Assembly: GCA_964632315.1 (NCBI GenBank)
Contig: CAZWEM010000038.1
Coordinates: 1-47,007, forward strand
Length of the DNA: 47,007 nucleotides
From: an uncultured archaeon
GTDB lineage: Archaea > Asgardarchaeota > Lokiarchaeia > Sigyniarchaeales > SOKP01
Direction of reading: 5' to 3'
The number at the start of each line of letters is the position of its first letter. The first letter of the stretch is position 1. The notes below the pieces were generated by a model that saw nothing but the letters and a program-made list of their open reading frames with translations, made no database searches and was not told the origin of the DNA. Position numbers and translations under genes: made by a program. This document shows, in pieces, positions 11,357 to 34,959 of this stretch.

Positions 11357-11653
11357 TTACGAGCTGACAAGTTGGAACAGAATCGAGGCATGTGGAATAA
11401 AAAATTGATCTCCCTTTTTTATGACAACAGTATGGAAATATTCCGCCAAACCTAAAAATCCACGGATTACAGATTCATCTTCTTCAAATTTAAAGACTAC
11501 TTTAGCAATTGCGGCACTCGTACCAAAATTTACCTTATCGTAAACTCGCTCATCAATTTCCGCAGAAATGACGCCAATTCAATTCAATAACGGTATTTTG
11601 AGTTCGTTTACTATTTCATAAACCCTTTTGATAAATAACTCACGTTTTGGAAT
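11357..11653 (-). CDS. Small hypothetical protein interrupted by a 30-nt stop-containing segment (88 aa if removed); start ATT 11653 or TTG 11674
   Basis: Manual translation IPKRELFIKRVYEIVNELKIPL[LN*IGVISAE]IDERVYDKVNFGTSAAIAKVVFKFEEDESVIRGFLGLAEYFHTVVIKKGDQFFIPHASILFQLVSS*. SD-like GGTGG lies 6 nt before the ATT. The paralogous fragment at 4.6 kb shows many synonymous differences. Confidence 0.7.
11558..11587 (-). other. Candidate 30-nt archaeal-type (relaxed bulge-helix-bulge) mRNA intron
   Basis: UUGAAUUGAAUUGGCGUCAUUUCUGCGGAA contains the in-frame UGA (11581-11579). Central helix CCGU/GCGG is followed by UA^U and AA^A; cutting after the second nucleotide of each removes exactly 30 nt and restores the frame. 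Confidence 0.55.
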
Positions 11654-12032
11654 CGTAAACCACCATATCTTCAATCTTTTTGTATTTTCTTTCGATATTT
11701 CACTTAAAATTCAAATTTTAAAATATCTATTATTTTGGTAATTTAATGAAATATGATATATAATAATATTAGATTTTGTATTTTTAATTATATTTTTTTT
11801 GATTCTCATTTATTTTTTAAGATTAAATCATAGGAAATAGTGTTAAAGGAAAATGATACTATTTAGGTTTTATAATTTTGATATAATATGTGGATATCAG
11901 TTATCTTGTATTTTGTTCTCTCCTTTATACGAAAAATATAAAATTATAAATGAAAATTAATATAATACCATTAAGATTATAAAATATATATTTTCCTATT
12001 TCTGAAAAAAATTTAGAGGATTTGAATAAACT

Positions 12033-12764
12033 ATGGTATCTAAAGAACAAAAAAAGTTGGAACGCGTTGTAAATTTCATGAAAAAAGGTTTACAATCATT
12101 ATCTGATGATCTTGAAGACACAATCAAAGGAATAAATGATTTCATTAAATCTTTAAATAAGGCTTTAAAGGATTTAAAAGATGTTGAGGTGGTTCCAGAT
12201 GTAAAAACTGTTAGTACTTCCTCTAAAAAGGTGGTTATGGCTAATCCTGAAACAGCAAAAACTGCGGCTGCTAGTACATTGTTCAATTTGTTAAGTGGAG
12301 CAGGTCCAGAAATCTCTACACCTGCAAGCGCCTCAAATATTCCTGCAGCCCCAGCTGCTCCGGCTATGAGTGGCCCTCCAAAAAAACCGGCAAGTGGTCC
12401 TCTCTCAAAACCACCTTCTGGTGGAGGTCCCCCTAAAGCACCTAGTGCACCTAGTACACCGCCGAAAGCACCAGTTGCAGGAGGCCCACAACGCTCAAAT
12501 CTACCCCCAGCACCTAAGTTACCACCTGCCCCCGGTAGTGGCCCTCCAAAGGTACCAGGTGGAAGTACCGTACAAACACCTTCATTTGCAAAAAGACCGA
12601 GTGCTCCTATGGCCCCATCTGGAGGAGTCCCCAAACCTCCTGGAGCATCAACAACACCTCCTCCCTCCCCCGTTACTCCACAGGCAGGTGGAGGCTTGAG
12701 TTCTTTGCGAGATGAGATGCTTGAAGAATTAAACAGACTTAAGAAAATAATGAGGGGAGAATAA
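12033..12764 (+). CDS. Proline-rich protein with N-terminal coiled coil and C-terminal WH2/VASP-like helix
   Basis: Heptad-like first ~50 aa; long Pro/Gly/Ala/Ser region; C-terminus GGGLSSLRDEMLEELNRLKKIMRGE. Confidence 0.8.
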   Translation: MVSKEQKKLERVVNFMKKGLQSLSDDLEDTIKGINDFIKSLNKALKDLKDVEVVPDVKTVSTSSKKVVMANPETAKTAAASTLFNLLSGAGPEISTPASASNIPAAPAAPAMSGPPKKPASGPLSKPPSGGGPPKAPSAPSTPPKAPVAGGPQRSNLPPAPKLPPAPGSGPPKVPGGSTVQTPSFAKRPSAPMAPSGGVPKPPGASTTPPPSPVTPQAGGGLSSLRDEMLEELNRLKKIMRGE

Positions 12765-12859: not shown

Positions 12860-13600
12860 ATGACAAGATTCTTAATGTGTGACAAGGATGTTCCAATTGT
12901 GGTTCCAAAAAAGATACTAGTTATTGCTCCTCATCCAGATGATGAAATCATTTCATGTGGAGGTACTATAATGAAATACCAAAAATTAGGCTCAGAAATA
13001 ATTATTGTTGTAGCTACACCAGGTATAGGAGGATATGCACAACTTTCTCAAAAAGAGAGCGTAATAGAACGTAGACACGAGGAATTAGCTAATGTAAAAA
13101 AGATTTTAAATTGCACCATAATTGAACTAAATTACGAAGATCTAATGGTAACAAGAAAAAAAGTTGCGACCATGACCAATTTGATCAGGGACCAACAACC
13201 ACAAGTGATCCTGATGCCTCATTTTTCAGATTTTCACAGAGTTCATAGACATTTATCCTATATTTGTAGGGAAGCAATTTATCACTGTACCACTGGAAAA
13301 GCATATGGGGGACATGAAAGAAATTGGATTCCTTTTGGAGTATATTATTATGAATCTCCCTCATGTAAATTTCAATACGTCGAAGGAAATGTTTTCCTGA
13401 TTGTCGATATTTCAAAATTTTGGAACGAAAAAGAAGAAATATTTAATCACGTATATTTTTCACAAAGGGAAGTATTAGAACGAGTAGTTGAATGGGCTAA
13501 AGATACAGCAACATTAAGAGGAAATGAGATTAATTCTCTATACGGAGAAGCTTTTATTCCGGAAACTACATATACTCCAATGAAATTGTTACTCGTATAA
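12860..13600 (+). CDS. PIG-L/LmbE family N-acetylglucosaminyl deacetylase
   Basis: APHPDDE, RRHEE, DFHRVH and YGEAF motifs. Confidence 0.9.
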   Translation: MTRFLMCDKDVPIVVPKKILVIAPHPDDEIISCGGTIMKYQKLGSEIIIVVATPGIGGYAQLSQKESVIERRHEELANVKKILNCTIIELNYEDLMVTRKKVATMTNLIRDQQPQVILMPHFSDFHRVHRHLSYICREAIYHCTTGKAYGGHERNWIPFGVYYYESPSCKFQYVEGNVFLIVDISKFWNEKEEIFNHVYFSQREVLERVVEWAKDTATLRGNEINSLYGEAFIPETTYTPMKLLLV

Positions 13601-13733: not shown

Positions 13734-14849
13734 ATGAGAAATCTCACTGTTGTGCTTGATATTGGACAGTTTTCCTCAAAAGCAGGCTTTGCTGGTGAAG
13801 ATTTTCCCTCTCAAGTATTTTTTACAATAGTGGGTAAACCAAAATATCAACAAGTTAATTTTGATATAGGGATTCCTTCCCAGGATGAGTTTTACGTTGG
13901 GGATGAAATTCAATCATTAGGACTTTATAAAATTACATATCCTATTGAAAAAGGAATAATTCAAGATTGGGTTTCTTTTGAGAAAATAATAGATTATATC
14001 TTTTACAGTTTAAGAGTTGATCCAACCTTAGTTAATCTACTATTTGCCGTGCATCCTTTGTTTCCGCAACAAGATTTAAAAAGATTATTTGAATTGTTTT
14101 TAGAACAGTATCAATGTAATGCTTTTTATCCTGTACTAGATTCAATGCTTACTCTATATGCTGGAGGTTTTCAAACGGGCTTGGTAATAGAGATAGGAGA
14201 TAGTATCACTCGGATAGTTCCTATTTATGAGGGGTACAAGATAAACCATGCAATACGGATCTTAGACATTGGTGGTCGTACATTAACTCGTTACATGGAA
14301 AAAATTTTAGGAGAGATTGGTTTTTCAGCAGATTCTTCAATTAGAAGAGAATTAGTTAGGGCTTTAAAAGAAAAAGCTTGTTTTGTATCGCTTGATTATA
14401 AAGAAGATATTAAAAGAAAAGAACAATATGAAAAACCTTACTCTTTGCCTGATGGATCTACGATCATATTAAATAGGGAAAGATTTGATGTTCCTGAATT
14501 ACTTTTCAATCCTAGTTTGGAACTAGAAGAAGATCCATTACCTAAAGCCATTTTAGATGTCATTGAGAATTGTGATTTAGATATACGTCCAGAATTGTTA
14601 AACAACATTTTTTTATCTGGAGGTTCTTCAATGTTTCCAAATATTAAGTCTAGAATTTATCAAGAATTAGAACTTGAATTAGCAAGAAGAAAGAAAAAGA
14701 CTCACTCAATCAAAATTATAGCTCCACGAGAGAGAACTTTTTCAGTATGGGTAGGCGGTTCTATTTTAGCTATGATTCCAGAATTTTCTAAAAATTGGAT
14801 TAGCCGAGCTCAATATTTTACAGATGGGATTCCAGATAATCTCTTATGA
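13734..14849 (+). CDS. Actin-family protein (divergent Asgard actin / actin-related protein)
   Basis: KAGFAGEDFP, YVGDE, YPIEKGII, VPIYEGY, KEKACFV, YSLPDG, LSGGSSMFP and SVWVGGSILA are collinear with actin. Confidence 0.95.
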   Translation: MRNLTVVLDIGQFSSKAGFAGEDFPSQVFFTIVGKPKYQQVNFDIGIPSQDEFYVGDEIQSLGLYKITYPIEKGIIQDWVSFEKIIDYIFYSLRVDPTLVNLLFAVHPLFPQQDLKRLFELFLEQYQCNAFYPVLDSMLTLYAGGFQTGLVIEIGDSITRIVPIYEGYKINHAIRILDIGGRTLTRYMEKILGEIGFSADSSIRRELVRALKEKACFVSLDYKEDIKRKEQYEKPYSLPDGSTIILNRERFDVPELLFNPSLELEEDPLPKAILDVIENCDLDIRPELLNNIFLSGGSSMFPNIKSRIYQELELELARRKKKTHSIKIIAPRERTFSVWVGGSILAMIPEFSKNWISRAQYFTDGIPDNLL

Positions 14850-14951: not shown

Positions 14952-15314
14952 ATGGAAAACGATTTTAATAATGCTTTTGAACAATCTAAAATATTGAAAA
15001 GATATTACCAACCTGATTTTTCCCAATTATTTAATAAAATTAAAGATATTAAAACTCCTGTGAAGAAGGAAATATTAATGGGACTTTTGGATGGAAATTG
15101 GCATTCTGAGTTAGATCTTATAAGAGTTGCAAAACGACAACAAAAATATATGGGTGCTGTAACCTTAGGAACTATGGTAAATTCATTAAATAAGATGCTT
15201 AAAAATGATTACGTAGAGAAAAGGATTTCAGAAGGCAAAATGTATTATAAAATTTCAGATAATTATGTGGGGTTAACACGCGCCGCTTATAACAAGCAAA
15301 AATTTGTTTTATGA
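14952..15314 (+). CDS. Hypothetical protein, winged-helix-like
   Basis: Helical core followed by YVEKRISEGKMYYKIS wing-like hairpin. Confidence 0.6.
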   Translation: MENDFNNAFEQSKILKRYYQPDFSQLFNKIKDIKTPVKKEILMGLLDGNWHSELDLIRVAKRQQKYMGAVTLGTMVNSLNKMLKNDYVEKRISEGKMYYKISDNYVGLTRAAYNKQKFVL

Positions 15315-33432: not shown

Positions 33433-34959
33433 TTATATTTTAAGTTCATTTCTTACAAAAACTTCAGCTGCCATTTCGAGATCTTCAATTTTTAAAGGTC
33501 TTGATAATGCTTTTTCTAGATCTGAGATAAGTTGCTTACATAGATTAATACTTAAAGAACTCCCTTTTTTTTCGATTAATTTTTTTAATTCATCTGGATT
33601 AATGACTCCATCAATCGTAGGCTCTAACTTTTCTTCAATTATTAATGGTTTAGGTTCTGATTTTAAAGGTTTTCCTCCTTTTAAATCAATTTTCACGTCC
33701 GAAGGGGTCAAAAATCTTTTATCCTCTGTCTTTTCATCTTTATCAAATAAAGTGAGACCCCCGAGGGATTTCTCTTCTTTATTAACCTTTTCTAATGTGC
33801 CAAAGGATTGAAATTTTTTCACTTTTTGTTGAGAGATTTGATCCTCACCAGGTAATGGCTTTACCTTTATTTTAGTATCAAATTGTATTTTATCAGGTAT
33901 TTCAAACTTTTTTCTACTTTCCCTAATCTTTCTCAATTGGTTTCGTTCATCAACTTTTGCTTGAAGACTTTCTATTTTAGTTGTAAAATTTTGTATCAAA
34001 TTTAGATCTTGGTAATTATCACACATTTTTATCAGTTCTTTATATTTTGCAATTGCCATTACTAAATTTGATTTCTCTTCTAAATTTTCTGCCTCTTTTA
34101 ATAACGTGAAATATTCATCTGGCAAAGATTTTTTTAAATTTAACTTTTCAGAAATAATTTGATCAAACTGCTGTCTTGCTTCAGTTTCCTTCATCGACAT
34201 TTCATTAAAATCTGGAATCTCTAATTCATTTCTTATAAATTTAATATCTGAGTCGTCTATTAGATCTCGCTTGTTTCCTATAATTATTAATTTTGATAAT
34301 ATTGCATCTTGATTATAAAGAGATCTGAAATGTTCAATGACTCTTAGATGATAATTAGATATATCAAATATAAAAATGACCAAATCTGAACCACTGATAA
34401 ACTTTGGCCATAGCAGAGAGAAGTTATCTTTTAGTTCAAAATCCCAGATATCGAATGAGAGTTTATTAATTGAATAAGTTGAAACCTTCGCAAAATTCAT
34501 TATATGTTTTTCATCCCCGTCTCGCAATAGCTCATATAAGGATGTTTTCCCCGAGTTAGTAGGACCTATAATGGATATCTTTGAATGAAATTCTTGTTGT
34601 AATGGCTCAATGAATTCTAAAAATTGATTTTTCTTGAATTCGGAGTCTTCCATCTCTTCGGGATATTTAAATAATTCTATAAATTGTGCTACAGTAGCCT
34701 TTAATGCTGCTTCGACCCTTTCTAATTGATCAATCAGATCTACAACGAATATTATGGTATAATCTCCTGAAGATCGATAGAATATCTGAAAATCTGCAAT
34801 TGGTCTCTGAAATGTCTTACCTGGCATTGGCATCTCCAAATAAGACTTAACTAATTCTATAACGTTTTTTAATTCTTTGTCTCCAAGTGCTATGGCATAA
34901 GAATAACTGAATATTGGAAGTTTTTTTGCTTTATGAAATACATGTATTTGACGTAGCAT
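33433..34959 (-). CDS. Multidomain protein: longin-like N-terminus, Arf-like small GTPase, helical (MIT/TPR-like) region, low-complexity linker, small C-terminal helical domain
   Basis: G1 GPTNSGKTS, degenerate G3 WDFEL, LWPKF, IFIFD, G4 GNKRD; the flanking domains are inferred from secondary-structure pattern. Confidence 0.8.
   Translation of the reverse strand: MLRQIHVFHKAKKLPIFSYSYAIALGDKELKNVIELVKSYLEMPMPGKTFQRPIADFQIFYRSSGDYTIIFVVDLIDQLERVEAALKATVAQFIELFKYPEEMEDSEFKKNQFLEFIEPLQQEFHSKISIIGPTNSGKTSLYELLRDGDEKHIMNFAKVSTYSINKLSFDIWDFELKDNFSLLWPKFISGSDLVIFIFDISNYHLRVIEHFRSLYNQDAILSKLIIIGNKRDLIDDSDIKFIRNELEIPDFNEMSMKETEARQQFDQIISEKLNLKKSLPDEYFTLLKEAENLEEKSNLVMAIAKYKELIKMCDNYQDLNLIQNFTTKIESLQAKVDERNQLRKIRESRKKFEIPDKIQFDTKIKVKPLPGEDQISQQKVKKFQSFGTLEKVNKEEKSLGGLTLFDKDEKTEDKRFLTPSDVKIDLKGGKPLKSEPKPLIIEEKLEPTIDGVINPDELKKLIEKKGSSLSINLCKQLISDLEKALSRPLKIEDLEMAAEVFVRNELKI

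Follow-up and report, generated by a model that had tools for sequence, protein, structure and literature searches.

An undescribed Asgard protein family that combines a coiled-coil head, a proline-rich arm and a putative docking helix

We analysed a 47,007-nucleotide stretch of DNA (hereafter the window) from an uncultured archaeon (GTDB lineage Archaea; Asgardarchaeota; Lokiarchaeia; Sigyniarchaeales; SOKP01), which corresponds to positions 1 to 47,007 of the forward strand of contig CAZWEM010000038.1 in assembly GCA_964632315.1. A gene at positions 12033-12764 encodes P0001, a protein of 243 amino acids that belongs to an undescribed and unannotated Asgard family of modular adaptor proteins. 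It is very probable that members of this family carry a docking helix on a proline arm behind an oligomerising head, and that they are genomically coupled to a second, small protein of about 88 amino acids. The adaptor gene forms a G+C island, with 45.5% G+C vs 29% in the window, and an antisense open reading frame (ORF) that overlaps it (11996-12634) is a by-product of the CCN/GGN-rich codon stretch. The structure of P0001 was modelled with AlphaFold2 (AF2) from an alignment of 94 sequences, and confidence is given below as the predicted local distance difference test (pLDDT). The gene and its parts, all on the + strand, are as follows.

12033-12764, + strand: adaptor gene (P0001, 243 amino acids), an ORF with an ATG start and more than 200 homologous clusters
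12042-12179, + strand: N-terminal heptad (coiled-coil) helix, residues 4-49, nearly invariant, AF2 pLDDT of about 97
12207-12230, + strand: TVSTSSKK stretch, residues 59-66, with T59, V60, S61, S63 and S64 invariant among 25 members
12246-12299, + strand: short conserved helix AKTAAASTLFNLLSG, residues 72-89, modelled by AF2 as a helix over 72-87 with pLDDT 63-73
12300-12686, + strand: basic, proline-rich, disordered tether, residues 90-218, pLDDT below 60
12501-12527, + strand: proline motif LPPAPKLPP, residues 157-165, invariant among 25 members
12579-12599, + strand: PSFAKRP, residues 183-189, with P183, F185, K187 and R188 invariant among 25 members
12687-12761, + strand: GGG hinge and putative terminal docking helix LSSLRDEMLEELNRLKKIMRGE, residues 219-243, invariant among 25 members

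An earlier sequence-only reading of this DNA had proposed that the protein is an actin regulator of the WASP or VASP type, assembled from an N-terminal heptad helix, a short amphipathic helix, about 130 residues of proline-rich disorder with many PxxP motifs, and a WH2-like C-terminus. Each of these building blocks was recovered in our analysis. In its best register, the head helix carries L, I, V, M or F at 12 of its 15 a and d positions. In the short helix, L83 is invariant, and L87 and G89 are kept in at least 90% of the sequences, even at 30% identity. The tether comprises 129 residues (31% Pro, 15.5% Ala, 13% Ser, and 12% Gly) with a net charge of +10 and contains 16 PxxP motifs; its longest proline run is three residues, in agreement with the earlier caveat that long polyproline runs are absent. 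The number of (G)PPKAP-type repeats in the tether differs among homologues. The tail, GGGLSSLRDEMLEELNRLKKIMRGE (residues 219-243), was modelled as a helix over residues 222-241 with pLDDT 88-95, and this helix ends two residues short of the stop codon.

The head and tail helices are both strongly amphipathic, with hydrophobic moments of 0.58 and 0.50, respectively, and AF2 did not pack the tail on the head (predicted template modelling score, pTM, 0.23). A search of PDB sequences with the full-length family profile returned coiled coils only. Pfam searches with the whole protein, the tail, the second helix, and the tandem arrays described below yielded just sub-threshold noise of the coiled-coil type, and an ESM Atlas search with the head gave no usable match. 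The N-terminal coiled-coil helix probably oligomerises P0001. As to transcription, a 227-nucleotide contig from a marine-sediment metatranscriptome run (X20) was identical to positions 12268-12494 inside the adaptor gene, with a word depth of about 36; the rest of the surrounding 4.1-kb stretch, including the small gene, the PIG-L gene, and the actin gene listed below, had no match in the same run. This match is a weak hint that the adaptor gene is transcribed, and carry-over of DNA is possible.

More than 200 clusters homologous to P0001 were found, none of which has a Pfam family. All are named "hypothetical" or left unnamed save P0083, whose name (DNA polymerase III gamma/tau) is probably a mis-annotation. 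The clusters that carry an organism label come from metagenome-assembled genomes (MAGs) of Asgard archaea labelled Loki, Hermod or Odin. In 25 diverse members that are 62-87% identical, the head, TVSTSSKK, the short helix, LPPAPKLPP, PxFAKRP, and all 25 residues of the tail are invariant; the C-terminal motif on which the actin proposal was based is therefore conserved. An exhaustive profile search gave 52 representative clusters, and some of the full-length members are only about 30% identical to P0001 and still show the same four-part layout. TVSTSSKK is absent from the distant members, and LPPxPK[LM]PP was found in 79 of the 94 family members. Across the whole family, M229 of the tail is invariant and R226, E228, L233, L236, and K237 are conserved at 90% or more.

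The family profile matched 266 of 400 genomes of the phylum, although the weak matches in this search (E of 1e-6 to 1e-9) may partly reflect composition. Strong matches occurred in GTDB families f1-f7, f19-f21, f26, and f27 and in parts of f31, where f-numbers denote GTDB families and f1 is the family of this genome, to which the actin-adjacent loci belong. Orthologues in the very small closed genomes of f27 retain the head, the tether, and a tail that ends ...SLKNEMLKELKRLKKLMTG. A pattern scan covering one genome per prokaryotic species hit contigs labelled as Asgard, plus a single exception. This exception (L149, DATKTW010000083.1) carries the adaptor gene and is filed under a "Nanopelagicaceae bacterium" MAG, probably through a binning error.

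The terminal helix is, judging from its recurrence in other sequences, a portable module. Its 20-residue consensus, SLRDEMLxELxRLKxIMRG, was found in several other Asgard protein architectures. P0162, P0166, and P0170 contain two to three tandem copies between proline-rich linkers, ahead of a Zn-ribbon-like domain, and P0157 consists of a Ras-like GTPase, two copies of the helix, and then a Zn-ribbon-like domain. P0168 has a transmembrane segment, a coiled coil, and a proline-rich stretch, with the helix at its end. In P0153, an Arf-like N-terminal amphipathic segment (MGIFSKLMFW) is followed by a proline-rich stretch and the helix. P0127 joins a transmembrane segment and the whole module to a TIR domain and was the sole result of a search for longer, fused forms. 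The tail helix thus looks like a docking peptide on a flexible arm that is often tethered to a membrane. Within the present genome, a regular expression and a hidden Markov model of the tail detected no copy besides that in the adaptor gene. The Zn-ribbon-like domain follows the pattern C..C....CC.C, and a Ras-like GTPase precedes it both in P0157 and in the genome's own copy; the latter homologue (C29:32269-33060, - strand) consists of the GTPase and this domain and does not carry the tail helix.

The genes that flank the adaptor gene are as follows.

11357-11674, - strand: gene for a protein of about 88 amino acids, divergent to the adaptor gene, a neighbour kept across the phylum
12860-13600, + strand: PIG-L family deacetylase gene, between the adaptor and actin genes (Pfam PIG-L, 2.2e-24)
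13734-14849, + strand: divergent actin paralogue, similar to actin-related proteins (Pfam Actin, 305 bits)
14952-15314, + strand: gene for a 120-amino-acid protein that accompanies the actin paralogue, no Pfam family

When the flanks were compared all against all, the gene for the 88-amino-acid protein was the single neighbour that recurred beyond family f1. The two genes are at most 3 kb apart in all 7 f1 loci examined, in 8 of the 12 loci in other families, and in 4 of the 5 very distant genomes, and their order may be divergent, convergent or co-directional. They adjoin each other in f1, f5, f6, f7, f19, f21, f26, f27, and one f3 locus, and they are separate in f3 (three of four loci), f4, and the genome G114. 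The families that encode the small protein (f1-f7, f19, f20, f21, f26, f27, and genus g76 of f31) all have the adaptor. Apart from this gene, the neighbours outside f1 are unrelated housekeeping genes. In an f5 locus (L054:4293-4838, - strand) that also contains the small gene, the adaptor gene has a gene for a tRNA-intron endonuclease 1.2 kb upstream, probably by coincidence.

The 88-amino-acid protein had nothing above the Pfam threshold, and PDB sequence searches gave nothing or noise. Its single-sequence AF2 model (pLDDT 72) has the topology alpha-beta-beta-alpha-beta-beta-beta. No match was found for this model by Foldseek against the PDB at E<=0.001; the best Z of a wide VIA search was 7.5, for nucleotidyltransferase-like or RsfS-like cores, which lies inside the noise band stated for the tool. 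The Atlas returned the protein's own cluster and weak nucleotidyltransferase-like matches.

The sequence-only reading had placed the adaptor gene on the same strand as, and two genes upstream of, an actin gene, and this position was confirmed: the actin gene at 13734-14849 follows the PIG-L gene. The encoded paralogue is 42% identical to the Lokiactin of the same genome, which has five actin-family genes including this one; two of them, of the Lokiactin type, score 428-443 bits with Pfam Actin. Of 59 full-flank loci from close relatives in f1, 56 have the actin paralogue no more than 2.5 kb away from the adaptor gene. The PIG-L gene intervenes in 54 of 80 related loci, and in L006, L007, and L008 it is missing and the adaptor gene directly abuts the actin gene. 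Almost all of the f1 loci examined encode the 120-amino-acid protein downstream of actin, with 46-74% identity.

Conservation of this arrangement does not extend to other families. None of 12 loci from six other GTDB families has an actin gene within 6 kb of the adaptor gene, and no orthologue of the actin paralogue was found in f5, f7 or f19, all of which retain the adaptor. In two closed f3 genomes, the adaptor gene and the orthologue of the paralogue (49-51% identical) are separated by 43 and 273 kb. Because f5, f7, and f19 have no paralogue and the f3 copies are distant, the function of the adaptor family cannot depend on the actin paralogue. Even within f1, the synteny with actin is no stronger than that with other flanking genes, for example a topoisomerase gene. 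Adjacency of the adaptor gene to the actin paralogue is thus a feature of f1 alone and was not seen in the six other families. Two further, looser arrangements of the three genes were observed. In G135 (C1:2215475-2260819), the adaptor gene, the 88-amino-acid gene, and the actin paralogue all lie within 45 kb, and in G138 (C1:456402-467103), the 88-amino-acid gene is 9 kb from the actin paralogue and 263 kb from the adaptor gene, which is situated in the region of C1:729643-730455.

The invariance of the tail implies a specific partner. Our best single guess, which is offered tentatively, is that the docking helix would bind Vps4 or another protein with an MIT domain, Vps4 being the prime candidate. 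[quoted passage not shown] In P0001 the pattern is made up of E228, M229, E232, L233, R235, L236, and K237; within the tail, E228, M229, E232, L233, L236, and K237 show the strongest conservation across the whole family. The ESCRT-III protein, of the Vps2/24/46 class, ends ...KELEDELNKLKSRD, and its 13 orthologues in the genus end KELE(E/D)(E/Q)L(N/R)KLKS(R/K)D. When EMLEELNRLKK of P0001 and the ELEEELNKLKS form of ESCRT-III were aligned on ELN, 7 of 11 residues were identical. The pattern [DE][LM]x[DE][DE]Lx[KR]L[KR] had two matches in the six-frame ORFs of the genome (2.9 million residues), namely the tails of ESCRT-III and P0001. The looser form E-φ-x-x-E-φ-x-K/R-φ-K/R was present in the last 30 residues of 89 of the 94 family members, in 4 of the 12 ESCRT-III tails taken from five further Asgard genomes, and near the C-terminus of only three ORFs in the genome itself. 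Besides ESCRT-III and P0001, the only such protein is a 436-amino-acid ORF (C30:12370-13677, - strand) that ends with E-φ-x-x-E-φ-x-K-φ-K (..HEIKEELDKLKTQNNEIEM), possibly another MIM1-like tail.

The spacing of the MIT-interacting motif MIM1 is also present in P0001: an amphipathic helix at the extreme C-terminus with M229, L233, and L236 at positions 0, +4, and +7 and the basic K237 at +8. A Vps4 MIT domain (residues 1-85) is encoded in the genome at C21:28647-28901, and the Leu/Ile-rich C-terminal helix of Asgard Vps2/24/46 proteins has been described as MIM1-like and modelled on the MIT domain of Vps4 (Lu et al. 2020, PMC7240154). By these comparisons, the tail of P0001 appears to be no less similar to the Vps4-recruiting, MIM1-like end of ESCRT-III than to an actin-binding motif. 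In the mechanism that we propose, the oligomeric head, possibly together with the 88-amino-acid partner, would position several flexible arms, each of which would recruit a soluble factor through its terminal docking helix, with an MIT domain (that of Vps4) as the best guess. MIT-like repeats are expanded in the genome (C34:33165-34145 and 33433-34959 of the window): a 2357-amino-acid protein has at least four MIT-like matches, several smaller MIT-like proteins occur, and the sequence-only reading described a GTPase-MIT-like fusion in the window. If the tail is MIM-like, the other MIT-like proteins would be candidate receptors alternative to Vps4.

Several observations weigh against docking to an MIT domain, whether of Vps4 or of another protein. 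In eukaryotes, the strict MIM1 consensus reads (D/E)xxLxxRLxxL(K/R), with an acidic residue at -3 and Arg at +3. P0001 departs from it at both positions, with Arg226 at -3 and Glu232 at +3; Asgard ESCRT-III tails likewise have Glu at +3. The conserved helix is about eight residues longer than MIM1, and nothing in ESCRT-III tails corresponds to its invariant flanks, LSSLR and IMRG. Because the shared patterns were formulated with both sequences in view, their rarity is a post hoc measure. The motif also occurs internally and in tandem in other proteins, which is unusual for MIM1 and typical of WH2 arrays. P0001 had no match to ESCRT-III (Snf7, PF03357), and AF2 modelled a single long helix rather than a hairpin. 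No conserved linkage to ESCRT or Vps4 genes was detected, and the housekeeping neighbours outside f1 show no cytoskeletal or ESCRT theme. ESCRT-III genes were seen 10-15 kb from the adaptor gene in G117 alone, where the adaptor and 88-amino-acid genes are located near two of them (C1:2271544-2287485). A role of LPPAPKLPP as an MIM2 was ruled out. With the MIM2 consensus φPxφPxxPφP (Kojima 2016, in the form in which PMC5840170 quotes it), 2 of 94 members matched when Ala was allowed as φ, vs 1.9 expected by shuffling, and none matched strictly.

WH2 motifs consist of an amphipathic helix of two to three turns, a flexible linker that often contains Gly, and an extended LKK(T/V). The tail of P0001 shares with WH2 and Ena/VASP motifs a short amphipathic helix with L-K-K-hydrophobic that follows a Gly hinge and a proline-rich region, in a protein with a probable oligomerisation helix, and its tandem copies in other Asgard proteins are a further likeness. 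The WH2 assignment itself was not upheld. No match to WH2 (PF02205) was found by hmmscan in the whole protein at E<=1, or in residues 200-243 and the tandem regions of P0157, P0162, P0166, and P0170 at E<=10, although the motif is short and the HMMER filters discard weak matches; the tail profile had no match in the PDB. Unlike the helix-linker-extended form, L236-K-K-I239 lies within one unbroken helix (222-241) in the AF2 model of the free chain, whose bound state could differ. Between the first turns and LKKI, Gly occurs in 2 of 30 aligned motif copies and Pro in none of the 30. L236 and K237 are conserved at 90% or more, whereas position 238 may be K, S, E, H, T, G, R or A, and position 239 may be I, V, L, M, Y or A and is never Thr. 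P0001 also differs from Ena/VASP in that it has no EVH1 domain (nor any other Pfam domain) and no polyproline run longer than three, and in that its strong heptad helix is N-terminal rather than C-terminal. Of the proposed actin regulator, then, the modular layout of a probably oligomerising helix, a proline-rich tether, and a terminal amphipathic helix stands, and WH2 identity and general adjacency to actin are not supported.

Three other accounts of the docking helix were weighed against Vps4 or MIT binding. In eukaryotes, the groove of actin is bound by WH2 motifs, the G-actin-binding site of VASP, and thymosin beta-4, and arms of the adaptor, multimerised by the coiled-coil head, might act in the same way on Lokiactin or on the actin paralogue encoded nearby, either of which they might sequester, deliver or nucleate. 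This candidate seems unlikely to us, and it is quite unlikely that the family represents the first stand-alone actin-groove-binding assembly factor of Asgard archaea, that is, a multimeric, VASP-like or tandem-WH2-like protein whose arms deliver or nucleate Lokiactin. In its favour, the adaptor gene lies directly or one gene upstream of the divergent actin gene in nearly all full-flank f1 loci, and, by our reading of its sequence, the paralogue has kept the majority of its groove residues (LYAGG..., WVGGSILA) together with the acidic pair, ED. By analogy, the order of oligomeriser, proline-rich tether, and amphipathic helix with L-K-x-φ parallels VASP and WASP, and tandem tail helices separated by proline-rich linkers recall the tandem-WH2 nucleators. 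There is an archaeal precedent in arcadin-2, the last 17 residues of which form a C-terminal helix that binds the groove of crenactin with a dissociation constant of about 31 nM and whose gene neighbours that of crenactin (PMC5173319). The niche is also open, in that no stand-alone Asgard nucleator or elongator was found in the literature. However, the negative WH2 and PDB searches, the continuous helix around LKKI with its scarcity of Gly and lack of Pro, and the variable third and Thr-free fourth positions of the motif all argue against groove binding. A longest proline run of three residues does not provide the classical polyproline that profilin binds, and the absence of adjacency in six other families, the retention of the adaptor in f5, f7, and f19, and the distances in the closed f3 genomes also count against it. 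In addition, the proteins reported to co-immunoprecipitate with Lokiactin in L. ossiferum are gelsolins, a profilin, and an Arf GTPase (10.1101/2025.11.30.690169).

It is likewise doubtful, although conceivable, that the partner is the 88-amino-acid protein or another protein of a process unrelated to both actin and ESCRT. The small alpha/beta protein would then have its binding site on the head (helices 4-49 and 72-87) or on the tail helix. In its favour, it is the sole neighbour conserved beyond f1, retained in three relative orientations amid unrelated housekeeping genes and encoded only in GTDB families that also have the adaptor. Against it, the two genes mostly lie on opposite strands and hence form no operon, they are apart in f3, f4, and G114, and the small protein could be assigned neither to a family nor convincingly to a fold. 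The tail helix moreover occurs on other architectures and in other lineages, so its partner is probably more general. The remaining account, in which the helices form homo-oligomeric or intramolecular coiled coils and the protein is a spacer or condensate-former with no docking partner at all, is improbable. The strong amphipathicity of both helices, the exclusive match of the family profile to coiled coils in the PDB, and the low complexity of the middle of the protein are consistent with self-association. A tail of 25 residues that is invariant down to its solvent-facing charges, in members about 62-87% identical, instead indicates a specific partner surface; furthermore, the helix is reused on unrelated scaffolds that have no head, and AF2 leaves it unpacked on the head. 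Docking to Vps4 or another MIT protein stays our tentative choice.

The adaptor can also be compared with described systems. Like the Asgard MIM1, its tail is a C-terminal amphipathic helix that follows a Pro-containing segment, with positions 0, +4, and +7 hydrophobic and position +8 basic (PMC7240154, PMC5840170). P0001 differs from ESCRT-III proteins in that it has no ESCRT-III core and its head is a single coiled-coil helix. IST1-like proteins, which carry MIMs after a proline-rich linker, are a near system. Among archaea, the closest precedents for a C-terminal docking helix on a coiled coil or scaffold are arcadin-2 (PMC5173319) and CdvA (PMC12818579, PMC5840170). CdvA of Sulfolobales is a non-ESCRT adaptor in which a coiled coil is joined by a flexible linker to a C-terminal docking peptide, and this peptide recruits a component of the ESCRT-III system; unlike P0001, it has a PRC-barrel, and the target of its tail (E3B) is the winged helix of CdvB, not an MIT domain. 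Arcadin-2 of Pyrobaculum (PDB 5LY3) is archaeal, its conserved C-terminal helix is the active element, and its gene stands beside an actin-family gene (PMC5173319); for the adaptor, the active role of the helix is predicted. Compared by description, the two differ in that binding by arcadin-2 needs a Trp and the tail of the adaptor has none. The arcade cluster, moreover, belongs to Thermoproteales, and the actin neighbourhood of the adaptor is restricted to one lineage.

Our literature searches found Asgard WH2-like motifs only inside gelsolins and no stand-alone WH2, VASP-like or proline-rich regulator, and the adaptor is not included in the published lists of regulators that we found (gelsolins and profilins for actin; ESCRT-I, -II, and -III and Vps4). 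The adaptor is among the more widespread proteins of the phylum that have no family assignment, and its tail module is reused on GTPase-linked and membrane-anchored proteins. The actin and ESCRT systems of Asgard archaea serve to reconstruct the origin of the eukaryotic cell. If the adaptor does act on actin, factors built from an oligomeriser, a proline-rich arm, and a groove-binding helix, as used in elongation and nucleation, would predate eukaryotes. Whichever partner the tail recruits, be it Vps4 or another MIT protein, actin or the 88-amino-acid neighbour, a short helical recruiting code carried on proline arms would amount to eukaryote-style wiring in these archaea.

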